The notes beneath the pieces are model-generated. The model did no database searches. It saw only the letters and a list, made by a program, of their open reading frames with translations, and was not told the origin of the DNA. Positions 2,300 through 57,275 of a DNA stretch of 64,000 nucleotides are shown here, piece by piece. Position 1 is the stretch's first letter, and each line of letters begins with the position of its first letter. The position numbers were made by a program, and so were the translations under genes. Source of the stretch: a virus (Duplodnaviria; Caudoviricetes); IMG/VR virus record IMGVR_UViG_3300044614_001923. One strand, 5' to 3'.

Positions 2300-3355
2300 T
2301 TAACTTAAACGTGCAGTGACAAATGAGGTTACTTGATCTGTCAACTTATTTGTTGTTGCTCCTAAAGATAAAGCATTTGCATCTGGATTGATTGCGATAG
2401 GTGGATCATTTACATCACCAAGATAGAAATTTAAATCTTCATGAGCATATATTTCTGCAGTTGCAACATCAGTACTATTCAAATATAGAGCAAATGTAGA
2501 ATTAGATTTAATTTCAGATGGAAGTGCATCGTAAAATGTTCTTGCGCGTTCAAATCTATCTGTTGCTCCTCTAGTGACAACCAAAAAAGGACAAAATGCC
2601 GAAGAAGCACTTCTAAAGGGAGATGCTGCTTGATAAAAAATCAAACAATTTTGTCTTCCTGTTGTTGAATTTGGATAATCTGTAGTATATGTTGTTCCTC
2701 CAATTGGTATTGGTGGAATTGCAAAAGCGTTTGCATATACAATTTGAGATTTAATATTAGATCCACCTACATCAGTGTTAGTATCCCGAATAATTGTTTC
2801 AATATCATATCCATCAGTATCTAAAGAAATGCATCCTTTAATAGCAGATCTCAAAGCATTTCTCTGTGCAGTTGTAGTATATGCACTATTAATATAAGTT
2901 GTATTTGTGCATAATAGTGAAACTAAATGTGCTCCAGCACTATGCCCAGCAGCAACAATTTTGTTTGGATTTCCTCCAAAACGATTAACATTTTCAAAAG
3001 TCCACCTCAAAGCAGTAACCACATCATTTATATGATTTGGATGACGTACTCTATTTGTCGCCCAAGTTCCAATATTTGTAGATGGTATTGGGCTTAATCT
3101 ATAATTTACCGTTACAAAAATATAACCCAAAGAATTGAAAAATCTCGCTTTAGAATATGTTGATGATCCTTTATCACCAACTGTCCATGCTCCACCATGA
3201 ACCCAGAAAATGACAGGTCTATTTCCATAAATTCCTTCATTTAGATGATATACATCTAGATTTAATAAATTTTGAGTAACTCCAGAAATAGTATTATGAG
3301 ATATATTTAATATCGGAGAATTATCCTCAGATAAAAACAATCCTTGAATTGACAT
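2300..3355 (-). CDS. Alpha/beta hydrolase (HSL-family carboxylesterase/acetylesterase)
   Basis: HGGAW oxyanion motif, VNYRLSP, FGGNPNKI, nucleophile elbow GHSAG, C-terminal His (YAHED); TAATG coupling to the upstream fibre gene. Confidence 0.9.
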   Translation of the reverse strand: MSIQGLFLSEDNSPILNISHNTISGVTQNLLNLDVYHLNEGIYGNRPVIFWVHGGAWTVGDKGSSTYSKARFFNSLGYIFVTVNYRLSPIPSTNIGTWATNRVRHPNHINDVVTALRWTFENVNRFGGNPNKIVAAGHSAGAHLVSLLCTNTTYINSAYTTTAQRNALRSAIKGCISLDTDGYDIETIIRDTNTDVGGSNIKSQIVYANAFAIPPIPIGGTTYTTDYPNSTTGRQNCLIFYQAASPFRSASSAFCPFLVVTRGATDRFERARTFYDALPSEIKSNSTFALYLNSTDVATAEIYAHEDLNFYLGDVNDPPIAINPDANALSLGATTNKLTDQVTSFVTARLS

Positions 3356-8720: not shown

Positions 8721-9095
8721 TTATGCAGTTGGAGGTTCTGGAAAAACTACTTCTTCAGGTGAAGAAAAAGTAGTTGTAATATCTCTCAATTCTTGACGAT
8801 ATGTTTTCCATGATGTTGGAATGTTAGTTCCACATTCTTTTGCTTTTAATACAACCCAGTCGCAATTTGTAAGAAGTTGATCTCTCTCTTTTCTAACTTC
8901 TGCCCATGCAAGATCTAAATCTTCAACTGGAGCAACAAATTCGCCATTAATATATGACCACCCCATTCCAACACCCGCAACTGTTGATGTTTCAACATCG
9001 ACCCAGTTTGGATAATTCTTTGCATGTGATGGTTCAGCAGCTGTCATATTGACAACTACTTCGTTTTCTACAATTGCATAAATTTTGATTGCCAT
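8721..9095 (-). CDS. Tail fibre assembly chaperone-like protein
   Basis: AWAEVRKERDQLLTNCDW...WKTYRQELRDIT...FPEPP motif; lies directly downstream of a Gly-rich fibre gene. Confidence 0.85.
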   Translation of the reverse strand: MAIKIYAIVENEVVVNMTAAEPSHAKNYPNWVDVETSTVAGVGMGWSYINGEFVAPVEDLDLAWAEVRKERDQLLTNCDWVVLKAKECGTNIPTSWKTYRQELRDITTTFSSPEEVVFPEPPTA

Positions 9096-9131: not shown

Positions 9132-10925
9132 TTACCATGCCCAAACACGGACAACACCATTTCCACCAGCGCCAGAAGGAGATCCTGGAACAGTATTTCC
9201 CCCTCCTCCACCACCAGGAAATCCTCCGTTAGTTGGAAGAGTGGAACTATTTCCACCATTTCCGCCCGCACCCATAGATGAAGCATAAAGACCACCTAAA
9301 GGTCCACCTCTTCTTAGAGAAGTTCCTCCAATTCCTGCGTTTGCTGCTCCTCCCGCTCCAGGTCCAATTACGGAACTTCCTCCACGAGAAGATACTGATG
9401 CGGTGCCTCCACCAGCTCCAGCTGCTGAAGAATAACCATGACAACCTGTGTTTACTGCTGCTGAAGGTGCTGTGATATAAAAATCTCCAGCATATTGAAG
9501 ATTTCCATCGCCACCATAACCACCTCCAAAATTAGTATTTCTAGCTCCGCCACCACCACCAGCTCTTACAAAGTTATCTGCTGCAACTTCAAAAGAACTT
9601 GGTCCACCATCTTGACCAGTAGTTGTTGTAGAATTTGTTCCTCCTAGTCCTACAATTACAGAGGAAACATCTGGCAAATCTTTTGCTCTGAATAATCGTT
9701 CAACTACACCTCCAGCTCCTCCTCCAGAACAGGTAGATCTTGAATTTCCCGCTCCTCCTCCACCAACACACTGAACATATATCCAATTTGCTCTAAATGG
9801 AAGCGATGCTTGATTGAATGTACCAGAAGAAGTAAATTCTTGCAGATAAGTTTGAACGGTGCTAGCAACACCAACTAGACCAGAACCGTTTCCATAAAAT
9901 GTTGTTGCTGTAATAACACCTGTAATATTTGCACTTGCGCCAATTCTAATATGTTGACTTGTTTCTAAGTCTCCATTTACATATTCTGTTGTTCCTTTAA
10001 GACCTGGATATCCAACTTCTAATACATAATTTGGAATAGTTGTTGAACCAATTCCAACCTTACCATCTGCAGTTGCAGTGATAACTGTTCCTCCAGATCC
10101 AACCGTAATTTTTGGAACTTGAACGTCAGTGTAAGCATTAAGAATACCTACGTTTAACTGATCAGTATCTGGGGAATAATTTAAATTAGTATCTGTTCTT
10201 AATTCTTCTGCTCCAGTTGCTCCATTTACAAAAGTAATGTAGTGTGCTCCAGAGTCAGTACTTGCACCAACAATAGTTGCAGTTGTTGCGTTACTCGCTG
10301 TTCCAGTTAAACTGCCAACAAATCCGCCAGTGGCAGTAACTACGCCACTAATATTCGCATTTCCTTGTACTGTTAATTTCCATGGAGAATTGGTTGTTCC
10401 AATTCCAACATTAGCAGTCGTATGAACACCTGTTGCTGTTTGTTGGAAGTAATTTTGCTCATCAAATGCACTAATAGTTACAATTCCAGATCCTGCTGAT
10501 GTTCCAGATGAAACAATGGTGATATTTGTTCCAGCAACAATTTGAGTTACAATTCCAGTAAGAGATCTACCATCTCCTCTATAAGAGAGAGCAGTGACAA
10601 TACCAGTTGCTCTTAATCCTTGAGCATTAACTGTAACTCCAGATCCAACCTGAAGCTGAGAATCGATGGTTGTGACTCCAACAATTCTCAGATTATTTGG
10701 GATATATGTTACAGCAACACCAGCATTTTGTAAATATCGACCATCTCCATAATAAGTAACAATTCCAGATAAAGAATCAGATGTTGCTGTTATAAAACCA
10801 GCAGTTACTTTTACCGTACCTAAAGTTGTTACTCCAGTTACCCCAGAAACTACGAGACCTTGATCAAAGGTTGGAGATGAACTTCCAGATTTACTTCTGA
10901 TTGTATTAACCTGAATTATAGACAT
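9132..10925 (-). CDS. Tail fibre protein with glycine-rich C-terminal domain
   Basis: MSIIQVNTIRS N-terminus; VGIGTTN modules; C-terminal FTSSGTF..VQCVGGGGAG...GGNGVVRVW Gly-rich domain. Confidence 0.85.
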   Translation of the reverse strand: MSIIQVNTIRSKSGSSSPTFDQGLVVSGVTGVTTLGTVKVTAGFITATSDSLSGIVTYYGDGRYLQNAGVAVTYIPNNLRIVGVTTIDSQLQVGSGVTVNAQGLRATGIVTALSYRGDGRSLTGIVTQIVAGTNITIVSSGTSAGSGIVTISAFDEQNYFQQTATGVHTTANVGIGTTNSPWKLTVQGNANISGVVTATGGFVGSLTGTASNATTATIVGASTDSGAHYITFVNGATGAEELRTDTNLNYSPDTDQLNVGILNAYTDVQVPKITVGSGGTVITATADGKVGIGSTTIPNYVLEVGYPGLKGTTEYVNGDLETSQHIRIGASANITGVITATTFYGNGSGLVGVASTVQTYLQEFTSSGTFNQASLPFRANWIYVQCVGGGGAGNSRSTCSGGGAGGVVERLFRAKDLPDVSSVIVGLGGTNSTTTTGQDGGPSSFEVAADNFVRAGGGGGARNTNFGGGYGGDGNLQYAGDFYITAPSAAVNTGCHGYSSAAGAGGGTASVSSRGGSSVIGPGAGGAANAGIGGTSLRRGGPLGGLYASSMGAGGNGGNSSTLPTNGGFPGGGGGGNTVPGSPSGAGGNGVVRVWAW

Positions 10926-10988: not shown

Positions 10989-13900
10989 TTATGCTTGTGT
11001 TTCAATCCAAGTAATACGACCAGATACCAAGAATGGAGATGAACCTCTAATCAATGCGGTATCGATAGGTTTAACTGCAAGAGTTAATACATCTGGACCA
11101 TCTGGATAAAGTCCATCACCACCAAGTACAGAGTTTCCAAGTGTTGCAACTCCATCAAGACCTACAGTTGTTCCGTTCAGTCCTCTCTTGAGAGTAACTC
11201 CTTCAAGTGAAGCTCCACCTTGAGCTCTGAATGAATAGACAACCTGACCACTAGAATAAGTGTCTCCAACTTCATGTTGACAATATTGACTTAAACTTGG
11301 GGAACCAACTTCTTCCCATTCATCACTAGAAAGTTTAGCATTAACGATGAGAGAAACTTCGCAATCGTGAGTTGTAAGAACATTTGCTTCTTTAAGTAGA
11401 ATTTGCATTCTATTAATAATTTCTCTAAAACCAACCTTTCCTGTTGTTGAATTGTCCGCAGAAGGAGCAAGTCTGATTGAAACCAGAGGAATAAATTCCT
11501 TGAGAGTTTCAGCAGTTCCAGAGAATGCATAGAAAGCAAAGTTAGTAGTTCTAGTTACTAACGCTTCCTTATCCATAAAGATTCTATAATCGTCTCTTTG
11601 GCGGTTGGTAATAGTAGCTTGCTCAATTTCAATTGCTGTAATACGAGTTCCTGCTTCAAAGATACCTGTAGTTGAACCTGTGATTTCTTCACCAACAACT
11701 AGAGTTTGTCCCTCTGTTCTATTAATAAATGTAACTACAGTTGAACCTACGCTTGTCTGACCAGTTGGAACTACACCATTGTAGTTTGCAATACCACCAT
11801 TAGTGAATGGAAGAACCTTAGAGTCTGCACTGAAGTGATAAACTCTATCTTGGTCAAACTTGCCATCCATGATGACAGATACGCCCCAGTGATATAGTGA
11901 TGGTGAGAAGAATGGGTCATCTAAGGTTTCAACTTCATATCTGACAGGTAAGTTACCAGATCTAAAGTATGCTTCAGTGAATTGGTTATTATGTATAAAC
12001 TCATGACAATACTTAATTTCACCCTCTTGAGTCTTCATACCAAATCTGATAGTTCCAGCGCCATACCAGGAATAATCCATGTAAAGCATTTGAATTCTAT
12101 TTGTATCAATCTGATATCCACTGATACCAGTTCCATCCATTCTATCAATATTCCATTCACTTTGAGGTACAATAGTATCAATAACTTTACTTGCGGTTAC
12201 TCCACTGAGAGTCTTAGATCTATATGCTGGTTGTACATACATTAGATCGTCATCTAAGATCTTAATAACCTTATATGTTTGACCTCTAAGAATAATTCTA
12301 TCAAACTCTCTAAGTTGGGTAGTAAGTCTTGCACGACTTCCTCTAATCAGATACTCTCCTTTTTCGCAAGTAAAGGAACCAGCAAGTTGTTGAGTATTTG
12401 ATCTTCTTACAACAGATAGAATGTCTCCATCAAACTGGAAGAAGAATCCATTTTGATCATCAAACATACCAGCTTTAAGGTATGCGTCTCTCCAATTTAC
12501 TACGTTAAATACAGGGAATCCTTCAAACTTAGGATCTTTTAATGGTGTAGGAGTTCCTATTCTAATATTAAAATCATCAATAACTTCTTCAATTGCATAC
12601 TCACCATTCAATTCTACTGGATAAGTTGCATTTAGAATTTGGAACTTCTGATCATCGTCAAATGGCGCTTCAGTTGAAATACCATGTGGCCATTTTGTTG
12701 TGACAATCAAGTTAGTTGAAACTCCAACTTCTCCTTGAATTTGAACTTTTTCAATATCATATGTTGGGTTGAAGTTCAATGCCATTGAGCACTGAATACC
12801 CTTTCCTGCTTGATAGCGGAAATACTTTCTTGTTTGCCTAATCAATTGAGAATTAGGAACAAGACCTGCAACAAGTTGTACAGCACCGTCAAATGGTCTA
12901 TGAATTACTTTACTGTCACTGACTGCATACAATCTACTAGGAATGAAGTAATTTGCACTTTCATTGGAGAATGATGGTTCATCCTCAAGTTTAATAACAG
13001 TATTACTCTTTACTTGAACAATCTTAGATTCAAAATAAGTTCCTGGTCCAACGTTTGTACCAACTCCAGATCTATTCTTATAGATTCTGAAAGTATCGCC
13101 AGCAGAGAAATCAGTATAGAAATTGGTATTCTTTCCAGTTACTGTTTCCGACTCAGTATTAATTCCAATTGTACCAGGACCTTGAATAAATCCTTTAATA
13201 CTTCTAGAAATGAATGAATGAGTAAGTGTTGAACCCAAAGAAGTATATACAATCAGATCACTATTATCAACATCATTAAATCTATTGATCGCAAGTTCTT
13301 GGTTTGTTGATAAACCAATATGATTTGAATCAAGAGTTCTTACAAAATAATCAGCATTGTCAGTTAGACCACCAATAACAGCGGATCCATTTGAAGTGTA
13401 TCTGATTTTAGTTCCATCTGCAAGTTTATGATCAATAATTCTAAGCCAATTGGAATTAATTCCAACTCTGGTAGTATCTCCACCAGACATTGTATTGATG
13501 ACTTCTGGAACTTCTACGGTACTATAAAGTGTAAATGCATTTTCAGCATATCCTGTTGAAGTAGTTTCAACATCTTTTACTACATACGTATCGTCAGCAG
13601 CTCCATCGGTATCAATAGTGATAGAATGTGTTCCAATTCCACCTTGACTTGTAAATGATGTAATTCCACAAATCTTAACTGAAGCGGATGTTACACGCTT
13701 GTTAAAGACATTAAGACGATTCTTAGTTGTTGGTACAGCAACTGTAATATAAGTTAATGGATTTCTTCTACGTACTTTATATCTTCTCCAGTAGTACCAC
13801 CAATACCTTCTTCTCCATCTTCTTCTCCATCTTCTACTATAGTAGTAATAATAAAAATATGCAGTAGAAATTCCTACAATCTGGTGAATACCTTGAATGA

Positions 13901-16187
13901 GAACGTTTTCAGCAGCAGTTCCTTCATATCCACTGACTTGAGCATACCCATAACGGAATAGACCTGCTGTGTGAGCAGCGCCAGTAATACAAGTAATTGT
14001 TGCAGTTGCTCTTAATCCTCCCGAATAATTCCAGGAATAAATGTCAAGACTTTCTTGTTCACGAGCAACTCTGAATCGATCATTTGAGATTAGACCATCA
14101 TCAGTTTTTGCATAGAAATAATTATCAGCTGTTAATCCTCCTATAGGAGTTCCAGTGGTTGTATTATATCTAAGTCTTTGATTGTTTGTTAGTTCAGCTC
14201 TAGGTGGATTAGTAATTCGAATTGTAAATGCATTTGGTCCAATTAAAGAAGATGTAAATCTATGATAACCATTAAGAGTTCTAAATGAATCATTTGGATT
14301 CTGAATATTCAGAACTAATTTGTTTCTTAGTCTTGCATCTCTATAATTATAGAGTTCATACCAATTATCTCCAATATCACTCTTAACATTTCTAATCAAA
14401 TAATCTGTGTTATTTGCTAATCCAGATGGAGTTCCACGAGTTCCTGTATTAGTTGTATAGCGAACAGTTTGAGCAGTTCTATAACCTTCTGTGCTAAATC
14501 CTACATCCTGAGGAAGATAGATTGAATGCTGCAGTGGGTGATCAACAACCCGAGATGCCGCAACAAGTCTATCGTCATTCATGTAATAGGTAAGGTAGTA
14601 TCCATAATACCAGTAGTAATACCAATACCAACCCCACCACCAGTACCTATAATATCTTGCTCCAGGTACTCTAATCTGATACTCATTTAAGATGCCAGTA
14701 ACTTTATATGTTCTGTATAGATCAGTCGACCAATTTCCTCTTGTAGTAGTAACACCAATATTTCCAGTATTCCACTTACTAAAGAAGCAAATATTATCAC
14801 CGTATTGCAATCCGTGTGGTTTTGCAAACGTAATGGTTCCTCTTCTATCTACACGGGTGATTCTACCACCATTTGCTTTAATTAAACGGTGAGTTCCAAA
14901 ATCATTAGTTCCTCTAGTTGTTGGAGTTATTGCTGGATCATTAAAATCTCCAGCAACTCTAAACGAAACGAAAGTATATCCAGAACCAACTTGTACATCA
15001 CTGACTTTTAGTGGATGATAACTGGAAATTCCTGGTCCAGGAAAACTGTTTCCTCTGGGCGTATAGAACATAACGACGTCATCATTTTCAACAAGAATAT
15101 TCTTGCCGTTTCCATACTGCTCATCCTTATAGATATAAATTCTTCCAGCATTTGCTTCACCATTAATCTTCCAGTTTGCTCTTGGAACATTCCATTCTTG
15201 ACTTCCAATCCAGTTATCCTCAATATAAGGAAGATTTGCAAGATAAACTGAAGAAATTGGAGTAATTGCAACTCCAGGACCTGGAGATGGAATTGTTGAT
15301 TGGTAATATGTTTCGTTTTGGGTTTCAACGTTTGTAGGACTTTGGAAATTATATTTTTTTGTTGCTCTACTTTTCTTGAGGAAGAGTTTTGTTCCCTCTA
15401 CAATACCAGGAATATTATCTGTTGTAACTCTAAACGTTGACGCAGCGCCAGTGCTTGTCTGAATATCTAGAACTTCAATTGTTGATCCAGTATAGAAAGA
15501 TCCTGGGAAAATAAGAGTAAACTCTGTGTCTAACTGAAGAGTTTTATTGGATCTAAATGGAATCTTAACAGCAAATGTTGTGTCATCAGGAACATCTCTA
15601 ATAATAAAGATACCTTCATACTTTGGATCTTTAAGACCTTGAATGTCTACTACAGAACCAATTTTTAAATTATGAGGTTCTGGGGTCTGTACTACGATAT
15701 AATCGTTACCATCATCTACTTTTACAGTAAGAGCTTCAATATTTTCTTCTGGAATACCTGAAGTATATGAAGTTGGGATATTATTAACTAACTTAACAGT
15801 TTCCCATTTAGTAGTTTGAGTTCCATATTCAAAATCAGTATCAATTAGGGATTGTGGCTCAGATACTCTTAATTTTCCAACAGGATCAAGTAAATGCTTA
15901 GTTGGGATTATTTCAATATCTTCTTTTTCATAATAAATTTGGAATGAATCCGTAGATGCCATTCCAACAGTATTATATGATAAATCAAACGTTGTTTGAT
16001 TTAGTGGAGCATTGTAATTTACTCTGACTGTAGTATCAGGATCTGCAAAGCTGTATACCGCAACGTTTCTGGTTGAGTTTACAATGGATAATAATTTTGG
16101 AAGAGGCACATATCCTTTTGCTGTAATAATACCAACAGAAGGAGTAAAACCAATTATTTGATTACCATAAATTAATTGTCTTGCCAT
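10989..16187 (-). CDS. Giant virion structural protein (paralogue of 48331..53211) with Y/W- and R/W-rich inserts
   Basis: Shared blocks with the 1626-aa protein: LIDTDFEYGxQxTKWE, RPFDG..QxxRQTRxYFRYQxGKG, MDYSWYGAGxIRFG, RSGNLPxRYE, SxRLAPS.D, GGDGxYPxGPDVLT; repeated IGGLTxNxxYxV domains. Confidence 0.8.
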   Translation of the reverse strand: MARQLIYGNQIIGFTPSVGIITAKGYVPLPKLLSIVNSTRNVAVYSFADPDTTVRVNYNAPLNQTTFDLSYNTVGMASTDSFQIYYEKEDIEIIPTKHLLDPVGKLRVSEPQSLIDTDFEYGTQTTKWETVKLVNNIPTSYTSGIPEENIEALTVKVDDGNDYIVVQTPEPHNLKIGSVVDIQGLKDPKYEGIFIIRDVPDDTTFAVKIPFRSNKTLQLDTEFTLIFPGSFYTGSTIEVLDIQTSTGAASTFRVTTDNIPGIVEGTKLFLKKSRATKKYNFQSPTNVETQNETYYQSTIPSPGPGVAITPISSVYLANLPYIEDNWIGSQEWNVPRANWKINGEANAGRIYIYKDEQYGNGKNILVENDDVVMFYTPRGNSFPGPGISSYHPLKVSDVQVGSGYTFVSFRVAGDFNDPAITPTTRGTNDFGTHRLIKANGGRITRVDRRGTITFAKPHGLQYGDNICFFSKWNTGNIGVTTTRGNWSTDLYRTYKVTGILNEYQIRVPGARYYRYWWWGWYWYYYWYYGYYLTYYMNDDRLVAASRVVDHPLQHSIYLPQDVGFSTEGYRTAQTVRYTTNTGTRGTPSGLANNTDYLIRNVKSDIGDNWYELYNYRDARLRNKLVLNIQNPNDSFRTLNGYHRFTSSLIGPNAFTIRITNPPRAELTNNQRLRYNTTTGTPIGGLTADNYFYAKTDDGLISNDRFRVAREQESLDIYSWNYSGGLRATATITCITGAAHTAGLFRYGYAQVSGYEGTAAENVLIQGIHQIVGISTAYFYYYYYSRRWRRRWRRRYWWYYWRRYKVRRRNPLTYITVAVPTTKNRLNVFNKRVTSASVKICGITSFTSQGGIGTHSITIDTDGAADDTYVVKDVETTSTGYAENAFTLYSTVEVPEVINTMSGGDTTRVGINSNWLRIIDHKLADGTKIRYTSNGSAVIGGLTDNADYFVRTLDSNHIGLSTNQELAINRFNDVDNSDLIVYTSLGSTLTHSFISRSIKGFIQGPGTIGINTESETVTGKNTNFYTDFSAGDTFRIYKNRSGVGTNVGPGTYFESKIVQVKSNTVIKLEDEPSFSNESANYFIPSRLYAVSDSKVIHRPFDGAVQLVAGLVPNSQLIRQTRKYFRYQAGKGIQCSMALNFNPTYDIEKVQIQGEVGVSTNLIVTTKWPHGISTEAPFDDDQKFQILNATYPVELNGEYAIEEVIDDFNIRIGTPTPLKDPKFEGFPVFNVVNWRDAYLKAGMFDDQNGFFFQFDGDILSVVRRSNTQQLAGSFTCEKGEYLIRGSRARLTTQLREFDRIILRGQTYKVIKILDDDLMYVQPAYRSKTLSGVTASKVIDTIVPQSEWNIDRMDGTGISGYQIDTNRIQMLYMDYSWYGAGTIRFGMKTQEGEIKYCHEFIHNNQFTEAYFRSGNLPVRYEVETLDDPFFSPSLYHWGVSVIMDGKFDQDRVYHFSADSKVLPFTNGGIANYNGVVPTGQTSVGSTVVTFINRTEGQTLVVGEEITGSTTGIFEAGTRITAIEIEQATITNRQRDDYRIFMDKEALVTRTTNFAFYAFSGTAETLKEFIPLVSIRLAPSADNSTTGKVGFREIINRMQILLKEANVLTTHDCEVSLIVNAKLSSDEWEEVGSPSLSQYCQHEVGDTYSSGQVVYSFRAQGGASLEGVTLKRGLNGTTVGLDGVATLGNSVLGGDGLYPDGPDVLTLAVKPIDTALIRGSSPFLVSGRITWIETQA

Positions 16188-16234: not shown

Positions 16235-19200
16235 TCAAATACCAAAGATAATTGAAATTCCGTTGACAAAATTTCTAATACTTTGATTTCTAATATAAAG
16301 ATTTGTTTGCATGGTTGCAATACCAGTCACAGCAAGATGCTCTGTAGTTAAAACACCATCAACATCTATATTTTTTAAGAATCTAATGTCTTCAGCGAAA
16401 GTTGAGTATCCAACAATTCTATCAACATAGATATCCGAGAAAGTTGCAACACCAACTACAGAAAAGTCTCCGCCAATATTAACTGATTTTTCAATTCCAA
16501 CACCACCTTTGATAACAATAGATCCTGAAGAAATTCCACTGGATTCTGTTGTATTTGCAAATGTTGTTATTCCATTTATTAAAGTTCTTCCTTGAACATA
16601 TAAAGCAGTGCCACTAATTGCTACAGTTGTACCAATACCAACACTAGATGTTGTAACAAGACCTACTCCACTAATGTCTCTCTTCCAAACGTCGGATACG
16701 TTGAATAGTCCCGATCCATCTCCAGTGAAAGTACCAGACCAAATACCAACAAAAGTATTTCCAACCTTAATAGCACCAAATTGTTCCCACTCGTTATCTG
16801 TAGTGTAAACCCATCCTAAATGACCTCCACTTTGGGGATTTGAATTAAATACAACATCGCCAGGAGAACCAATGTCACTAGGAGCAGAAACTCCAACTGT
16901 ATATTTCTTAGATGTTAGTTGATTTCCCTGTAAGTATAGTGATACCGCTTCAATTCCCTTATCTGATGTTGAAGTTAGTCTGTTAGAGAATACTACTGGT
17001 CCATCAAATCTTGATATAATGTTTCCGTCTGGTCCACCTTCAACTTTGACTGATCTACTAATTGTAACTTCTAATGGAGATAATACATCAAAACCAATAT
17101 TAATTCCTTGAATATCTAAATCTTCACCAGTTACAGTAGGAACAGGTGCATTAAACACTTCTTCCTGACCAGTTGCTGAGTTAATCTTTTTATTTCCGAT
17201 GAAGAAAGAACCTTCTCCATTCATTGCTGTATAAACAGCAACGCCACCATCCATTTTTAAAGAAGTTGCAGCAATCTCTTCTGGTCCAGATAGTTTTCTA
17301 TCTTGACGATCTGGAAGAGAAGTTGAATAGTTTCCTGGTCCAAATCCCAGATATTCAAATGTATGCCCAGATGCCCTGATGATTGAATTCCTACGTAGTT
17401 CAATTGGAACTGGATTTATTTTGAATACTTTTGATCCGATTAAATGTCCACTCTTAAATGTTCCAAGAACACCTCTAAACACTGGAATTTCATTCTGAGT
17501 AACATTCTCTCTAATTCTAACAATTTCATCATCAATTGCTAGATAATCTCCAATTTTTAGACCCAGATTAACTGCGTTAAAAATTACAATGTTATCAATG
17601 TCTGGACCTGTAACTTCTCCATAAAGTGTTGTAGTAATTCCAGCATAATATGGAACCATTCTGCCAGAAATATTTTCATTTTTATTAGTTACTGATCCTG
17701 CATTTGAGGTTAATGCTTCTCTATATGCGTATATTGTTCCTGTTGGAATAGTAGTTGTTTGTACACCAACATTCAATTCAAATTGAGTTTTACTAATAAC
17801 TTTTTTAACAATAAAATCATCATTGTAAGATGATATAGAAGCACCACCTATTTTAACTTTATTATTGATAGCGAAACCATGCGAACCACTTGAAGTGAAT
17901 GTTGCAATTCCAGTATTAACATTATATCTGATCGATGTTATTCCTACAGATGGAGAACCTAGAAGTGCATATGCATTTAGTGTTGCAGTAACACCAATAC
18001 CTGTTCCAGGATTTGCAATTTCAACAAAATGAGCTGACTCTACATCAATTGAAGTACTTGCTCCAATTGATATATTTGTGATTCTATATACGGTATTATA
18101 TTGATCCAGTGTGTCAGGAATAATACCTTGAACACTTAAAACATCTCCAACATTATTGTAAATTGATGTTACACTGACGATACCGATAGTATGTCCAGTT
18201 GTTGTTGCAATTCCAACTACTGCAAGTGTATTTCCAACTCCATAAGCACTTCCTCCATCAATAATATTAACATCTAGAAGTCCTCCACTTACGCTATCGA
18301 TTCTTACAATTGCAGTAGCATCACTACCAACAACGGTTGTACCCAATCCAACAAGTCTAGCATTATAAAATACCTCACTTACTCCAATACCTGTACCATA
18401 ATTTAATCCAGAGTTTGCAATGGATACTTTTGTAATTGCATTTAATCCATGATCATGTTTTGTGGTGATTGTATGATTGTATCCTCCAACACTAGAAGCA
18501 ATATTCTGAATGTCAATTCCATTTTTAGAATCAATAAAATTCTTATTAATTGTTTCTTTAGTAACGCTTCTCTGAGGATCATTTAATACTACCTGACCAA
18601 TTGTAGATCGAGAAGCAAATGATCTAGATGGAAGAGGATCTGAATCAAAATTATCTCGGTTTATTTGTGGATAAAGATTTTCAATAGGTTGACCAAACTT
18701 ATATACATCAAAAGGAGATATATTTGGAGAATTTGATGCATTAGTTACTACAAGGTGATAAACACCATCCCTTTCTCCAGGTATATAACTTTGTATCTCT
18801 TGAACTCTATATACGACATAAGTCTCTTTATACTTTGTTCTTGTTAGATATGGAAGAGCAGTTGTTCTTGTTGATATATCATTCTGGAAGATTCCAGGAT
18901 TGGTTGTTAATGCAACTGTAAATCTTCTTCTAGTAGAAACACTCAGTACAGTAAATTCTCCATTAAATCCAAGATCATCTGTTGCGCTTAGATTTTCAAT
19001 ACTTGAAATATTTTTTAAGCGAACAGTGTTACCTGCTGTCAATTTATGAGGAAGTTCTGTAGTAATTGTTGCAACTCCAGAATTCCAGGTAGCGTTAGAA
19101 ATGAATCTAAAATTCCTTAATTCGTAAGTTGAATTTAATTCTTGATTATCAGTACTCAGATACTTAAGAATTTCTTCATCTGTTTCTGCTGTAGTGGTGC

Positions 19201-21619
19201 TGGATTCTTGAATAACATAACCATCAAGTGGTGGTCTTGCTAGTAAGAAACCTCTTGGAATTACATATCTTAAACGATAAATTGAATCAGAGAATGATCT
19301 AGTATCAGGTGTACGAGTAATATAAGTTCTTGCAGTAGCTTTATATGTAAGATCAGATATTGCATCTGTTATTGTATCAGTTGTTTGTGATATTTGAATG
19401 TACCATTGATTATTTGAAGAATCATATTGAATTGGATGTCCAATATCACCAGATTTTTTATCAGATACTCTACTGATTAACTTTAACTCAGATGTTTCGT
19501 TACTGTATATTTGCGTTTCTTGTCCAATAGTTGCTTCATTCAATGATTTAGCAAGTTTTATCTGTGTTGATCCAATTCCAGTTGCAACATCATTTGTAAT
19601 TACATAATACAAATTATTATTTGTCAGACCATCTGGAAGATGTCCAGTATCGGACATTATCCTGACGGTCTCTCCATTTTCAAAATCATGTGGTGCTTTA
19701 AATGTGATAATATTATTTGTTATTGAATTAGATACTCCATTGATTTTTTTAGAAACAATAGAAACTTTCTCTGAAGTATTTTCATTACTTCCGCCACTCA
19801 TTATAACTTTTGAGGAGTATAATTGAGATAAACCAGACTTAGTAATATTAATATTGATTAATTCATTTCTCTTTGCTCCAATTCTATATCCATCAGAAAT
19901 ATAATCTGGGATAATATCTTGGTTTAATTGATTATAAAGATATAATCTACCTGGAGTAGTTGCTGCATTAGTATTTTCTATATCAATTTGATAGAATTCA
20001 ACTGAGGTCTCTCTTTCCTCATTTTCTCTTGGTGGAATTACGTGAGTAATATATCCATAATCATCTCTTCTAAATGCAAGAGGTCTAAATCCTTTGGATA
20101 CAAGAGAAACAGCACCAAAGTTAGAGTTGGAGTTTGTGATTGAAAGATCACCACCAGATTCCGCAACAAAGTGATTTGCATATCCAATTGCAAATACTGA
20201 TACAATTTGGATAAAAGCATTATTTGATGCTTTGATATGGAAATTTTCTGATTCTGGTTTATATCTTGCTCTTGAATTAGAATACAAGTTAGAAACAGAA
20301 GTATTATCTAAATATGATCCTGTTTCATCATCATAAAGAACAAATGCATTATCATCTTTTTGCAGACCAATTCCAGTGAATTGGGCGACTACCATACTTT
20401 TGAATCCACTTGCCTTGCTTCCATCAGCATGTAATCCGCACATGCCAAATACTGAACGGAGTGAAATATTAAAGATGTATGGAGATGCTGAGGTCACAGT
20501 ATCACTAACAAGAACTAGAGATGCATTTGCAGTTGCATCTGCAGTTGGAGCAGCAATAAGTGGAGGATTCTGTACTTGATAACGAATTACCGATGAACTA
20601 ACAACTTCACTTATAACAAATTGTCCATTATAACCACCAGAATCAACATTTTGAATTTGAATAGGCGTATCTACATCTAGACCTGAAAGTGGTTCTTGTA
20701 ATTCTACAGTAATTGTTGTGCTAGAATCAATTGCATTTCCTGCATAAATTGAAGATATTAATGTCTCTTCTCCAGTTGATCCAACAATTCTAAATTCATC
20801 AACTTTAGTTTGAACATCAATACTTGTTGATGGATAATCTGGAAATATATTTCTTCCACTTGACTCGCCATATGCCAAACCAATTTTTTCATAATACATG
20901 TCAAGATCTGTTCTACCAGCATTAAAATTGCTGATAAAGTCATCATTGATTTTGACATTATTAACACCATCAGCGTACTCAAATACGGTTAATTTGTGGT
21001 GAGAAAAATTTGGAACAAATAGATTAGTTGTATAGTCTTTATAAATGTTTCCATTTGGAGCACCATCAAGAATAGTGAATTGCCAAATATAGGAAGAACC
21101 AGTTAATCTAAAAATTGCAGATCTCTCGATTTCATTATTTTGAGGATCTGGAACGTATTTTGGTCTAATTCTAGTTTTTCTGAGGTCTAATCCAACAATA
21201 GATGTTCCTCTTGGAATAATTACTCCACCATGAACACTATTAAACTTGTATAATTGATTATCTTCAGAGTTTAAATTAAAATCAGAAGTTCCACTAAATG
21301 GTGGGAAATTACTTGAGGTATCACTATTTCTAAGTAAGAAATTGTTTGTACCATTAGGTATCCATCCAGGTCTATTATCTACAATGTGATCACCTGGATA
21401 TAGGAGAATTGTTGTCTTACCAAACCTATCATTATCCAGACCTCTTTGATAAGAAAATCTAGCTGCTTCAATTAATGCCCTTTGAATTGTTTTGAAAGGA
21501 CGAGCAAGAGAATTGCCTTGATTTTCTACACTATCTGTAGAATCTAGACTTGATGGGTCAACATATAATATTTCCCCTTTGATGTTCTTGAGAAAATTAT
21601 CTAAGCGGCTTAGACCCAT
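16235..21619 (-). CDS. Large virion structural protein with N-terminal parallel beta-helix-like region
   Basis: MGLSRLDNFLKN...ARPFKTIQRAL motif typical of pectin-lyase-like folds; repeated HGxxxGxxVxI beta domains; C-terminal fibre segment. Confidence 0.7.
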   Translation of the reverse strand: MGLSRLDNFLKNIKGEILYVDPSSLDSTDSVENQGNSLARPFKTIQRALIEAARFSYQRGLDNDRFGKTTILLYPGDHIVDNRPGWIPNGTNNFLLRNSDTSSNFPPFSGTSDFNLNSEDNQLYKFNSVHGGVIIPRGTSIVGLDLRKTRIRPKYVPDPQNNEIERSAIFRLTGSSYIWQFTILDGAPNGNIYKDYTTNLFVPNFSHHKLTVFEYADGVNNVKINDDFISNFNAGRTDLDMYYEKIGLAYGESSGRNIFPDYPSTSIDVQTKVDEFRIVGSTGEETLISSIYAGNAIDSSTTITVELQEPLSGLDVDTPIQIQNVDSGGYNGQFVISEVVSSSVIRYQVQNPPLIAAPTADATANASLVLVSDTVTSASPYIFNISLRSVFGMCGLHADGSKASGFKSMVVAQFTGIGLQKDDNAFVLYDDETGSYLDNTSVSNLYSNSRARYKPESENFHIKASNNAFIQIVSVFAIGYANHFVAESGGDLSITNSNSNFGAVSLVSKGFRPLAFRRDDYGYITHVIPPRENEERETSVEFYQIDIENTNAATTPGRLYLYNQLNQDIIPDYISDGYRIGAKRNELININITKSGLSQLYSSKVIMSGGSNENTSEKVSIVSKKINGVSNSITNNIITFKAPHDFENGETVRIMSDTGHLPDGLTNNNLYYVITNDVATGIGSTQIKLAKSLNEATIGQETQIYSNETSELKLISRVSDKKSGDIGHPIQYDSSNNQWYIQISQTTDTITDAISDLTYKATARTYITRTPDTRSFSDSIYRLRYVIPRGFLLARPPLDGYVIQESSTTTAETDEEILKYLSTDNQELNSTYELRNFRFISNATWNSGVATITTELPHKLTAGNTVRLKNISSIENLSATDDLGFNGEFTVLSVSTRRRFTVALTTNPGIFQNDISTRTTALPYLTRTKYKETYVVYRVQEIQSYIPGERDGVYHLVVTNASNSPNISPFDVYKFGQPIENLYPQINRDNFDSDPLPSRSFASRSTIGQVVLNDPQRSVTKETINKNFIDSKNGIDIQNIASSVGGYNHTITTKHDHGLNAITKVSIANSGLNYGTGIGVSEVFYNARLVGLGTTVVGSDATAIVRIDSVSGGLLDVNIIDGGSAYGVGNTLAVVGIATTTGHTIGIVSVTSIYNNVGDVLSVQGIIPDTLDQYNTVYRITNISIGASTSIDVESAHFVEIANPGTGIGVTATLNAYALLGSPSVGITSIRYNVNTGIATFTSSGSHGFAINNKVKIGGASISSYNDDFIVKKVISKTQFELNVGVQTTTIPTGTIYAYREALTSNAGSVTNKNENISGRMVPYYAGITTTLYGEVTGPDIDNIVIFNAVNLGLKIGDYLAIDDEIVRIRENVTQNEIPVFRGVLGTFKSGHLIGSKVFKINPVPIELRRNSIIRASGHTFEYLGFGPGNYSTSLPDRQDRKLSGPEEIAATSLKMDGGVAVYTAMNGEGSFFIGNKKINSATGQEEVFNAPVPTVTGEDLDIQGINIGFDVLSPLEVTISRSVKVEGGPDGNIISRFDGPVVFSNRLTSTSDKGIEAVSLYLQGNQLTSKKYTVGVSAPSDIGSPGDVVFNSNPQSGGHLGWVYTTDNEWEQFGAIKVGNTFVGIWSGTFTGDGSGLFNVSDVWKRDISGVGLVTTSSVGIGTTVAISGTALYVQGRTLINGITTFANTTESSGISSGSIVIKGGVGIEKSVNIGGDFSVVGVATFSDIYVDRIVGYSTFAEDIRFLKNIDVDGVLTTEHLAVTGIATMQTNLYIRNQSIRNFVNGISIIFGI

Positions 21620-27489: not shown

Positions 27490-27711
27490 TCAATCCTCAT
27501 AAATTCTACACTCTAAAGCCTCTGGGTTTGAATCACAATATAATTCTAGAGGGGTTGGGTCATGTTCATCTCCAGGATGATTTTCTTTGTATGATTCTAA
27601 AGAAATCAATTCATCTTCAGTATGTCTACGTGATTGTGGAGATGTCTGTGGATCATCTAATATTTTTTTATCTTGCTCAATATGTTGAGACAGTGTTCTT
27701 TTGTTGTCCAT
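27490..27711 (-). CDS. cp12: CP12 Calvin-cycle inhibitor (phage type)
   Basis: C-terminal LELYCDSNPEALECRIYED is the CP12 Cys-pair motif; no N-terminal Cys pair, as in phage CP12; start set at ATG 27711. Confidence 0.9.
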   Translation of the reverse strand: MDNKRTLSQHIEQDKKILDDPQTSPQSRRHTEDELISLESYKENHPGDEHDPTPLELYCDSNPEALECRIYED

Positions 27712-27740
27712 ATAAGACAATAGCGTTTGTCTTATTTATT
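27712..27740 (-). promoter_or_regulatory. Late promoter (AATAAATA) overlapping a 9-bp hairpin that abuts the cp12 ATG
   Basis: Minus strand AATAAATA-AGACAA-ACGCTA-TTGTCTTAT-ATG. Confidence 0.6.
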
Positions 27741-53500: not shown

Positions 53501-55264
53501 TTATCCAAAGTTTCCAATTGTTGTACCAGTACCAACGCATGTAACCTTCATATAAGAGTTTGATAATGCTGTTATTGTTGCAGTTGAACTAAAAGCAAGT
53601 AAATCTAATCTTGAGTTTGATGCTGGTTGAACTAAACCTTTAATTGTGATTCCGTGAGATGTGCCAGCAGTAAGAGATGCTGAAGTAAATATAGTTACTG
53701 GACTTACTGTTCCACCAACAACAATTGCGTTTGAAGCAGTATTGGCCTGCAACGTAGCAAACGTAAAGTTACCTGTTGACAATGATGCTTGAACCGTAAC
53801 TGTGCCAGCGTTCGTAACTTTTGTAACAAAAACAACTGCTTCTATTTCATAGATGTACCCGCCCAGTAAAGCGGGTCTATTTGTTGCACCAAAAAATGAT
53901 GTTCCAGGACTTGTCGTGTCATTAATTGATAAATTATCTGGTCTGCGAATAAACTGAATCTCAGGAACTAATGCTCTTCGGTTAGCATTTGTCGTATCAT
54001 CATTTGTATGATATAACAGAACTCTATCATATTCAAAAGCACCAGATTCTGGCGTAGTAAGTAGAGTTGTAGATGCAACTGATATTTTTAATGGAGCTGA
54101 GGATGCTGCAGCAGATCCCGTTCCTTCAATATGCAATTCTGCAGTTGGATTTGTAACACTAATTCCAATATTACCACCTAAAGGTTGTAAAACTATGTTA
54201 TATGTTGCTGTTGATGGAACCGTAAATCCAGATTGTATCCACTGTGCAAAATTATTACTAGAACCATATTGACCTATTGAAAGATAATTTCCACCTTGTC
54301 CCGATAAAATAGTATGGGCATTTACGGTAATATCACTGATTGATGGATTTCCTTGTGCAACTGAATTTCCTAACCTTACCACTCCAGTTACGTCAAGTTT
54401 ATATGATGGATTAGTGACACCAACTCCAAGATTACCAGAAACATAAGCACCACCAGTAACTTGAAGTGGTTGTGATACGGTTCCAGTTAAAACGTCAGAT
54501 CCAATTCCAACTTCACCTGTTGAATGGACTACAACTCTATTGGTTAGATTTGTAGATGTAGCAATACCTTCAAAAGTTCCAGAAGTTGCTGCTGTATAAG
54601 TATCAATTCTAACTTGACCACCAGCAAGTCTTATTCTATCCCACCCATTGGAAGCATCTGCATCATTTCCTTTAAATAGAAGAAGTTCCGATCTTTCTGT
54701 TCCAGTGGTCCAAACTCTTTCACCAATATAGGTGTGATTATAAGAACCAGGACCATCACCAGTTGTTCCATAAAATGCAATATAATTTGAAGTTGTTGAA
54801 ACTCCAAGTCTCAAGTTACCATCAACTTGAAGTCTTTCTCCAGGATTTGTGGATCCTATTCCAAGATTACCAGAAACATAAGCACCACCAGTAACTTGAA
54901 GTGGTTGTGATACGGTTCCAGTTGAAGTTCCAGAACCAATAAAAACTGGTCCATTTGTAAATGTAGAGATTCCAGTTACATTAATTAATGCAAATGTAGA
55001 GACTCCAGTTACATTAATTCTTGATACGTTCGGTAACGTTGTAACACCACTAACTATTAAAGTCGTTGCTTCAATATCTTTATTTGTAATTCTTTGAGTT
55101 GCTGCAACTCCCACAAGTTCATGACCACCTTTAGTGGATCCATCATGAACTCTTAGAGTTTTATTTGTAGTGTCTACAGTTACTTCTGCTAAAGCGCCAG
55201 TAAATCCAACACCAGAAGTATGATCAGAGGTAGATCCTCTTCTAAATTGTACTTCTTTGACCAT
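53501..55264 (-). CDS. Tail fibre with Mtd_N anchor domain
   Basis: VQFRRGST..FTGALAEVTVDT..LRVHDG..GGHEL; fibre shaft modules. Confidence 0.85.
   Translation of the reverse strand: MVKEVQFRRGSTSDHTSGVGFTGALAEVTVDTTNKTLRVHDGSTKGGHELVGVAATQRITNKDIEATTLIVSGVTTLPNVSRINVTGVSTFALINVTGISTFTNGPVFIGSGTSTGTVSQPLQVTGGAYVSGNLGIGSTNPGERLQVDGNLRLGVSTTSNYIAFYGTTGDGPGSYNHTYIGERVWTTGTERSELLLFKGNDADASNGWDRIRLAGGQVRIDTYTAATSGTFEGIATSTNLTNRVVVHSTGEVGIGSDVLTGTVSQPLQVTGGAYVSGNLGVGVTNPSYKLDVTGVVRLGNSVAQGNPSISDITVNAHTILSGQGGNYLSIGQYGSSNNFAQWIQSGFTVPSTATYNIVLQPLGGNIGISVTNPTAELHIEGTGSAAASSAPLKISVASTTLLTTPESGAFEYDRVLLYHTNDDTTNANRRALVPEIQFIRRPDNLSINDTTSPGTSFFGATNRPALLGGYIYEIEAVVFVTKVTNAGTVTVQASLSTGNFTFATLQANTASNAIVVGGTVSPVTIFTSASLTAGTSHGITIKGLVQPASNSRLDLLAFSSTATITALSNSYMKVTCVGTGTTIGNFG
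54425..54923 (-). repeat. Perfect 64-bp direct repeat (54425-54488 and 54860-54923)
   Basis: Identical tccaagattaccagaaacataagcacc...gatacggttccagtt; period 435 nt (in frame). Confidence 0.95.
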
Positions 55265-56192: not shown

Positions 56193-57275
56193 TTAAGTTA
56201 AACCAGCTCCAGAAATTATAAATACGGGATTGGCACCTCCAGTGACACAAAGAAGTGTGCAGATACCATATTGAGCAAGCGTTCTAGTGCCCGTAGTTGC
56301 TGTAGCAGCAAGTCTTAAAGTTACGTTTGTACCTTGAGTTATTGTTTGAGATGATCCAGAGTCGTTATATACAGTTACAACATCTCCAACAGAAAAAATA
56401 CTAGCATTAACTGTAACTCCTCCAGTTGTTATATCAATATGTTTTCCAGCATCTGATGCTGCCAGTATATAAGCACCTGTTTGAGCATTTTGAGGAATTG
56501 CTCTTACATCACCCTTACTATCATTAACAGTTGATGAAGTAGTAACTCCAACAACGGTTAGATTTCTTGCAGTAGAGAATCCAGTAACAGCTAGAGTAGT
56601 AGTAGTAACAATACCTGTAGCGGATATACCACCAGTAAAGTTTCCATTACCAGCGACGTCGAGTTTTGATATCGGATTTGTTGTTCCTACACCAACATTA
56701 CCTCCCAAATATTTTAATGTTAAAACATCTAGTGTAGCGCCATCATTTCTAGATCTATAAAATAGATCACTAGATCCTGTAGATACTGATCCGAAAGCCC
56801 AATCAAATAGTCCATTTGTTTGAAAGTCGAATGCATTTGTTCCTGAAGCATCAGGTCTATTTACACGAACTCTTGCTGTTTGTCCCGATACTTGAATATG
56901 ATTAGTAGCACCATTAATGCTTAAGAGATGATCTGGATTTGTGGTTCCTATGCCAAGATTACCACTTATATAACCACCACCAACAACTTGAAAATCTTGA
57001 TCTGCAGTACCTGTTGAAGTTCCAGTACCAATTAAAACTGGACCAGTAGTAAAAGTTGATACGCCACTAACGGTTACATTTGTCGCAGAAATTAAAGTTT
57101 TATTTGTAATTGCCTGCGTTGCTGCAATACCTACAAGTTCTTTTCCGCCAACAGTTGTTCCATCATGAACCACTGCAATATCTTTATCAGTATTAATCGT
57201 TATTTCCCCTTCGGCACCTGTAAAAGCGGCATGTTCTGCAGTAGTACCTCTCCTAAATTTTACACCCTTTACCAT
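56193..57275 (-). CDS. Tail fibre with Mtd_N anchor domain
   Basis: VKFRRGTTAEHAAFTGAEGEITINTDK..VVHDG..GGKEL; C-terminal domain shared with 3355..5859. Confidence 0.85.
   Translation of the reverse strand: MVKGVKFRRGTTAEHAAFTGAEGEITINTDKDIAVVHDGTTVGGKELVGIAATQAITNKTLISATNVTVSGVSTFTTGPVLIGTGTSTGTADQDFQVVGGGYISGNLGIGTTNPDHLLSINGATNHIQVSGQTARVRVNRPDASGTNAFDFQTNGLFDWAFGSVSTGSSDLFYRSRNDGATLDVLTLKYLGGNVGVGTTNPISKLDVAGNGNFTGGISATGIVTTTTLAVTGFSTARNLTVVGVTTSSTVNDSKGDVRAIPQNAQTGAYILAASDAGKHIDITTGGVTVNASIFSVGDVVTVYNDSGSSQTITQGTNVTLRLAATATTGTRTLAQYGICTLLCVTGGANPVFIISGAGLT

Follow-up and report, generated by a model that had tools for sequence, protein, structure and literature searches.

The DNA analysed here, referred to as the window, is a stretch of 64,000 nucleotides from a virus of the Caudoviricetes (IMG/VR record IMGVR_UViG_3300044614_001923). 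Its minus strand encodes P0001, a protein of 1732 amino acids (aa) assigned by annotation to a family of virion structural proteins. P0001 contains a segment of 32 residues, here termed patch 2, in which Arg, Tyr and Trp predominate. Among all open reading frames (ORFs) of the window only two Trp/Tyr-dense patches were found; both lie in P0001, and the other one is termed patch 1. Coordinates of these and all further features are compiled in Table 1.

Patch 2 consists of 13 Arg, 10 Tyr and 5 Trp residues and one residue each of Phe, Ser, Lys and Val. The minus-strand translation reproduced the residues quoted in an earlier, sequence-based description of the locus (the initial annotation), and the composition and position (13764-13859) given there were exact. 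Arg accounts for 41%, Tyr for 31% and Trp for 16% of the segment, and Arg and aromatic residues together for 91%. Against the background composition of the window ORFs (W 0.9%, Y 3.8%, R 3.9%, F 4.6%), the binomial probability of at least 29 R/Y/W/F residues in 32 was approximately 1e-22. Without patch 2, P0001 is acidic (net charge -24, isoelectric point 5.6). A perfect 12-nt tandem repeat within the patch encodes RRWR units and thereby its RRWRRRWRRR core. As had been proposed, the insert is in frame within a virion-type protein, whose gene sits in a tail-fibre cluster. Contigs from three other lake runs (X7, X9 and X10; 2020, 2023 and 2025) crossed patch 2 with 0 indels and 0 internal substitutions. 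Since contigs of independent lake runs agree across the segment, patch 2 is not an assembly artefact, a possibility that the initial annotation had left standing.

Orthologues P0002-P0010 were obtained as a graded series from a search of 5.8 billion proteins. All nine originate from independent assemblies, are 52-93% identical to P0001 over aa 420-1000 and contain patch 2. A tenth carrier, L016, was recovered from a metagenome scan, so that the absence from all orthologues considered in the initial annotation was not observed. A codon alignment was built from the eight orthologues with available DNA and the window gene. Mean pairwise amino acid identity was 75% across patch 2 and 84% within its core. 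The conserved C-terminal core of the protein stood at 79%, the flanks at 63% and the remaining central region at 50%. The proportion of synonymous differences (pS) in patch 2 was 0.3-0.7, versus about 0.6 in the rest of the gene, and the proportion of nonsynonymous differences (pN) was about half that of the flanks. Tyr codons of patch 2 alternated freely between TAT and TAC across the alignment. AGA makes up about 80% of the Arg codons over the whole gene; the AGA runs of the patch therefore reflect codon bias and not a signal at the nucleotide level. In the nine orthologues, variation within patch 2 was highest at position 3 of the frame-0 codons (0.30) and lowest at position 1 (0.09). Length was the same and sequence almost the same in 8 of the 9 orthologue sequences with DNA, the exception being P0010. 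Because synonymous divergence is like that of the gene while identity in the patch is high, patch 2 is under purifying selection on its protein sequence itself in frame 0, beyond mere composition. Selection had previously been argued from the cost of Trp and Tyr codons; the orthologue comparison shows it directly. The accompanying expectation that composition would be conserved while sequence varies did not hold for patch 2, which is kept nearly letter for letter, and applies instead to patch 1, whose length and sequence vary widely. Conservation of this kind suggests that patch 2 has a defined structure or binds a specific partner.

Patch 2 is restricted to a narrow group of sequences. When 1.84 billion representatives were searched, only three proteins covered the patch region (P0003, P0016 and P0017); the other 122 matches fell on a common repeat domain (aa ~890-970). 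At the corresponding point, a short Trp/Arg-containing stretch is all that the more distant orthologues P0011-13 and P0016 possess, and P0017 has nothing there. The paralogue encoded in the same window was aligned by BLASTP solely to aa 1-283, 847-1462 and 1562-1732 of P0001. It lacks the central region and either patch, and the ORF scan agreed with the alignment in confirming the reported absence of the insert from this protein. Because distant orthologues hold a short stretch or none, patch 2 is, judged by these alignments, a lineage-specific insertion of about 20-30 residues with a single origin in the clade; slippage of 12-nt and 6-nt units probably accounts for its growth. In P0010, additional 6-nt WR units make Arg and Trp alternate strictly along one strand (RWRWRWRWR), and a Gly lies close to the predicted tip. 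A search of IMG/VR for related loci returned one distant family member only (L001:277-5304; IMG/VR 3300020470_000077). It has the same N- and C-terminal blocks as P0001 and a centre of about 180 aa in which Trp, Tyr, Arg, Asn and Gly are very abundant. Exact-pattern matches in IMG/VR to DNA coding for RRWRRRWRRR (L011, L012 and L013) were rejected as unrelated AGA microsatellites and not orthologues. These matches lie at the ends of long AGA microsatellites, and one of the contigs is a giant-virus metagenome-assembled genome.

Trp/Tyr-rich inserts occur at four different loops of the P0001 lineage (Table 1). Apart from P0001, patch 1 is present in P0002, P0003, P0005 and L016 and absent from P0006-P0010, and its length ranges from 0 to 51 aa among orthologues. 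The longest version (L016:1753-1905) is 51 aa in length, follows a periodic, GWWW-like pattern and contains 24 Trp, 8 Tyr and 9 Gly. Sites A and D are occupied by independent Trp/Tyr-rich inserts of 13-25 residues. By sequence comparison, the variable centre of the family thus gains aromatic loops repeatedly. Among the four sites, only patch 2 adds Arg to the aromatic residues and stays constant. That patches 1 and 2 represent the same loop of one domain type was considered and could not be confirmed by sequence: when aa 440-565 were aligned with aa 715-850 by hhalign, the patches themselves matched over 18 low-complexity columns (probability 2%), and there was no further homology.

P0001 matched PHROG 5838 (E 5e-168, 562 bits, best stretch aa 866-1422) and PHROG 1645 (E 6e-47), both labelled 'virion structural protein'. 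In tblastn searches its identity to annotated virion structural proteins from Synechococcus myoviruses was 33-40%, and 172 phage records matched, mainly Synechococcus phages at 33-35% identity. On these matches, P0001 is assigned to the cyanomyovirus virion-structural-protein family PHROG 5838. The PHROG 5838 proteins of S-RSM4, Syn1 and S-RIM44 share with it the N-terminal block (aa 1-283) and the C-terminal blocks (aa ~850-1732), but differ in the central region (aa ~284-846) that holds both patches. Within 50,697 phage records, no tblastn match to aa 400-1000 was obtained at E 1e-5, and megablast of window positions 12800-14800 gave no match. As far as these comparisons reach, the central region is without cultured relative and the patches are limited to one uncultured freshwater clade. 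Pfam assigned no family to whole P0001, and a feature search of the ESM Atlas with the C-terminal part returned only unnamed viral clusters. A family member was also found in a 39.9-kb circular podovirus-like genome (L014, MW202722.1), between a tail fibre gene and holin/endolysin genes. The P0001 family spans phage morphotypes, and the position of this member beside a tail fibre gene supports a tail-appendage role.

P0001 is followed by a gene with a Gly-rich domain and a tail assembly chaperone gene, and preceded by a gene for a large tail fibre protein. The downstream gene order was identical in each orthologous locus that includes the downstream gene. The window further encodes gp32, gp53, a tail tube protein, a gp5-like hub and CP12. 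The CP12 ORF, an auxiliary metabolic gene of cyanophage type, lies between a baseplate hub gene and a tail protein gene. The phage is T4-like, uncultured and of freshwater origin, and is probably a cyanophage, because a T4-like phage here carries CP12. The stretch was present in 20 lake or freshwater metagenome runs, and no RNA runs were listed among the sequencing runs containing it. Near the paralogue, two proteins with an Mtd_N domain are encoded (53501..55264 and 56193..57275, both minus; E ~1e-12); Mtd_N is the N-terminal domain of the major tropism determinant. A carboxylesterase or alpha-beta hydrolase (2300..3355, minus; Pfam COesterase, E 7e-23) is encoded between large fibre-like genes and could be a virion-associated deacetylase.

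Table 1. Features of the window and insert sites of the P0001 lineage (residue numbers refer to P0001).
Feature	Position in window	Strand	Residues	Basis or remark
P0001, virion structural / tail-appendage protein	10989..16187	minus	1732 aa	ORF listing and translation
Patch 2, Arg/Tyr/Trp segment; insert site	13764..13859	minus	777-808	Net charge +14; all carriers
12-nt tandem repeat	13807..13835	minus		2.4 perfect copies; Tandem Repeats Finder, score 58, 100% matches
Small beta-barrel domain bearing the hairpin	13638..14045	minus	715-850	AF2, mean pLDDT 76.8
First hairpin strand	13821..13853	minus	779-789	AF2 E65-75, pLDDT ~68-76
Hairpin tip, RWRRRY	13803..13820	minus	790-795	AF2, coil between strands
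Second hairpin strand	13770..13802	minus	796-806	AF2 E82-92
Patch 1, Trp/Tyr patch; insert site	14583..14657	minus	511-535	19 aromatics in 25 residues; carriers P0001, P0002, P0003, P0005, L016
Insert site A			after 473	Carriers P0005, L016
Insert site D			after ~1531	Carriers P0007, P0008, P0009
Upstream neighbour, 1794-aa tail fibre protein	16235..21619	minus		PHROG 529 'tail fibre protein', E 0
Downstream neighbour with Gly-rich domain	9132..10925	minus		Pfam Gly_rich_2, E 1.3e-13
Tail assembly chaperone	8721..9095	minus		Pfam Phage_tail_APC, E 1.7e-15
76-aa ORF with CP12 domain	27490..27720	minus		Pfam, E 7e-13
Paralogue of P0001	48331..53211	minus		PHROG 5838, E 2.7e-184

Structures were predicted with AlphaFold2 (AF2) from alignments of 10-15 rows (10 rows for aa 715-850), which are shallow. 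The model of aa 715-850 contained a meander of strands at residues 766-776, 779-789, 796-806 and 811-817, the middle two of which are formed by patch 2. The six-residue tip between the patch strands had a predicted local distance difference test score (pLDDT) of 68-76. In the model of aa 440-900, strands 779-784 and 801-806 enclosed a tip of low confidence. Patch 1 reached a pLDDT below 50 in this model and had no confident structure. According to these predictions, patch 2 would form a two-stranded beta-hairpin with about 11 residues per strand. Both models were symmetric around residues 792/793, which sets the register at i+j=1585. With this pairing, an aromatic residue faces Arg or Lys in 11 of 15 rungs, the best value among all registers, and 3.6% of composition-preserving shuffles of the P0001 patch reached it. 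The cation-aromatic register is suggestive only. The strand pairing is derived from the symmetry of the models and, like the solvent exposure of the hairpin, should be taken as provisional.

About 80 of the 136 residues of aa 715-850 superposed on the beta-barrel of phi92 endosialidase (4hiz_A; Z 7.4, root-mean-square deviation 2.4). The domain also superposed on a ubiquitin-E1 fragment (4p22_B; Z 6.2), the matched region of which we take to be the FCCH barrel. Both Z scores are below 8, where according to the tool's own warning a match may reflect a common arrangement. Patch 2 may be an excursion from a small barrel, for which the approximately 56 unaligned residues would leave room. The models suggest that it interrupts a small beta-barrel domain, in the variable centre of the protein, between two strands that were already present. 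Pfam returned no family for aa 715-850 or aa 440-565 at E values up to 10, including PF12195 and PF16190. A profile search of PDB sequences gave nothing below E 0.36, and the 461-aa model had no Foldseek match in the PDB with an E value of 0.001 or lower. A complex prediction with three copies of aa 715-850 scored 0.00; it was run without controls and speaks neither for nor against self-association.

We put the probability at about 0.45 that patch 2 is a structured cationic-aromatic arm with a conserved anionic or glycan constituent of the host envelope as its target. In nearly every rung of the hairpin, Arg or Lys would stand opposite Tyr, Trp or Phe and thus produce a stiff ribbon, both faces of which would carry guanidinium groups and aromatic rings. 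Such a ribbon could give a tail appendage a fixed arm for binding. Ring stacking and salt bridges might attach it to lipopolysaccharide, exopolysaccharide or the membrane interface. Patch 2 would then provide generic, host-independent adhesion, and the length-variable Trp/Tyr loops elsewhere in P0001 would tune specificity. The recurrence of aromatic inserts at other loops suits an outward, adhesive role. A further-reaching proposal, which we regard as rather unlikely, is that the lineage grafts Trp/Tyr(/Arg/Gly) hairpins onto loops of small beta-barrels as adhesion surfaces. Patch 2 would in that case be a fixed, disulfide-free cation-pi 'zipper', an arm resembling antimicrobial peptides that binds and locally loosens the outer envelope of the host during infection.

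Several points weigh against an envelope-binding arm. The near-invariance of patch 2 fits an internal interface equally well, and receptor-contacting loops of phages usually vary. Some picocyanobacterial lipopolysaccharides are poor in phosphate, which makes an anionic target uncertain. The hairpin is predicted with moderate pLDDT from shallow alignments, and the cation-aromatic register statistic is weak, being reached by 4-37% of shuffles in the orthologues. The presence of P0001 in virions, finally, is taken solely from family annotation.

The main alternative, which we consider possible but doubtful, is that the hairpin is an assembly element: a cation-pi 'Velcro' fastened to an acidic surface, be it within the same protein, on another subunit or on a fibre or baseplate protein nearby. 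It would then fix the architecture of the appendage and have no contact with the host. Patch 2 is conserved as strongly as the C-terminal core, a level that interfaces typically show and receptor loops typically do not. The opposite charges of patch 2 (+14) and the rest of P0001 (-24) point in the same direction, as does the gene order with the fibre, Gly-rich and chaperone genes, which is fixed in every locus containing them. However, the paralogue and the distant orthologues keep the N- and C-terminal blocks without the hairpin, which is therefore not needed for basic assembly. A scan of the window for a complementary acidic patch yielded one short Asp/Glu run in an unrelated 200-aa ORF, and the variable length of the other aromatic inserts resembles surface elaboration. 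Quite unlikely, in our view, is an antimicrobial or cell-penetrating peptide that disturbs the outer membrane at adsorption or contraction and so helps the tail through. The 91% share of Arg and aromatics and the RRW-type units are like those of (RW)n and natural Arg/Trp peptides (PMC4588174), and the alternating RWRWRWRWR of P0010 is a classic amphipathic beta pattern. The activity of such peptides, however, depends mainly on composition, whereas the exact sequence of patch 2 is conserved. Moreover, both faces of the hairpin are mixed in the predicted register, with no separate hydrophobic face. The patch contains no Cys, gives no sign of release and has twice the share of Tyr (31%) that it has of Trp (16%). 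In T4-like phages the membrane is pierced by the central spike and not by proteins of the fibre cluster; the gp5-like hub is encoded elsewhere in the window.

It is very unlikely that patch 2 is low-complexity sequence of no functional consequence, expanded when AGA/TGG/TAY repeats slipped during replication and accommodated by a loop. The perfect 12-nt repeat, the 6-nt WR units gained by P0010 and the greatly differing lengths of patch 1 among orthologues would all be in keeping with slippage. A neutral repeat would, however, drift in length and sequence. Patch 2 is nearly fixed in both in 8 of 9 sequences while its synonymous sites have diverged like the rest of the gene, and its pN is below that of the flanks. 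Hardly credible is an assembly error, or a true reading frame at +1 in which the Arg/Trp/Tyr peptide is never made and a Gly/Thr/Glu-rich one takes its place. The +1 frame is open for about 35 codons over both patches and reads as ordinary Gly/Thr/Asp/Glu-rich fibre sequence. This openness is automatic, since T never occupies the second position in TGG, TAY or AGA, and stops close the frame on both sides. The observed pattern of variation, with position 3 changing most and position 1 least, is opposite to that of +1 coding, and an error of assembly is contradicted by independent assemblies that agree on the sequence.

Fibre and appendage proteins determine the hosts of phages, and those of freshwater cyanophages are almost unstudied. 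Patch 2 has the look of low-complexity junk, yet it is among the best-conserved parts of a 1732-aa protein. Aromatic inserts occupy three further loops; one of them has 24 Trp in its 51 residues, even though no amino acid is rarer than Trp in the window's ORFs. If patch 2 is a stand-alone, disulfide-free cation-pi ribbon, it would represent a new natural design for stable Arg/aromatic beta-hairpins, of interest to peptide engineers, and would offer a handle on how phages grip cyanobacterial envelopes. Grafted hairpins with a zipper-like arm would be a natural counterpart of minimalist Tyr/Trp paratopes and a new mode of engagement between phage and envelope. Even as an internal assembly clasp, patch 2 would display unusual interface chemistry.

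The literature was searched for Trp-, Tyr- or Arg-rich segments in structural or fibre proteins of phages, and no precedent was found. Antibody and synthetic paratopes can be rich in Tyr and Trp. T-even gp38 adhesins carry hypervariable, aromatic/Gly-rich receptor loops (PMC12032242). The variable patch 1 and the inserts at sites A and D are like both in placing Tyr/Trp/Gly/Arg loops on a constant scaffold. Compared with gp38 loops, the aromatic content of the P0001 lineage is far more extreme (24 Trp in the 51 aa of L016) and patch 2 is constant, not hypervariable; the likeness is one of description, with no homology found and none tested for.

The domain of aa 715-850 is like the barrels of phage endosialidases (phi92, K1F) and the FCCH-type barrel of ubiquitin-E1 at the level of fold superposition (Z 7.4 and 6.2). 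Unlike these, it has no Pfam match at the sequence level, and only about 80 of its 136 residues superpose. The endosialidase beta-barrel bears a sugar-binding site. P0014, another relative in the P0001 family, has a Pfam match to E1_FCCH (4.6e-13).

Peptides rich in Arg and Trp, among them indolicidin, tritrpticin, the lactoferricin core and synthetic (RW)n, target membranes and DNA (PMC4588174). They are free, processed peptides of about 13 residues; indolicidin contains 39% Trp and 23% Arg and has no defined fold (PMC4588174). Patch 2 is like them in its extreme share of Arg and aromatics, its RRW-type units and its likely cation-pi chemistry, and anionic lipid, lipopolysaccharide and DNA are plausible targets common to both. 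Unlike them, it is a 32-residue part of a 1732-aa protein, has Tyr as its dominant aromatic residue, is predicted to form a hairpin and is conserved in sequence. It is not a short free peptide: a folded domain surrounds it, with predicted beta strands on either side, and no evidence of processing was seen. Because it is embedded in a large protein, Tyr-rich and sequence-conserved, patch 2 is outside the class of Arg/Trp antimicrobial peptides, to which its likeness is compositional only. The interpretation given in the initial annotation is supported in part. Of the membrane-peptide signature that it read into the segment, the resemblance in composition stands; the setting within a large protein, the lack of Cys and the excess of Tyr over Trp do not fit it.

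A second class, the beta-hairpin antimicrobial peptides (tachyplesin, polyphemusin, protegrin and arenicin), is defined by disulfide cyclisation (PMC13001179). Patch 2 is like these peptides in that it is predicted to be a single cationic hairpin rich in Arg and aromatics. Unlike tachyplesin-type hairpins it has no disulfides, as Cys is absent from the patch in every orthologue; its predicted strands are longer (about 11 residues each) and it is not secreted. In this disulfide-free hairpin, stabilisation would fall to the cross-strand pairs of cationic and aromatic residues.

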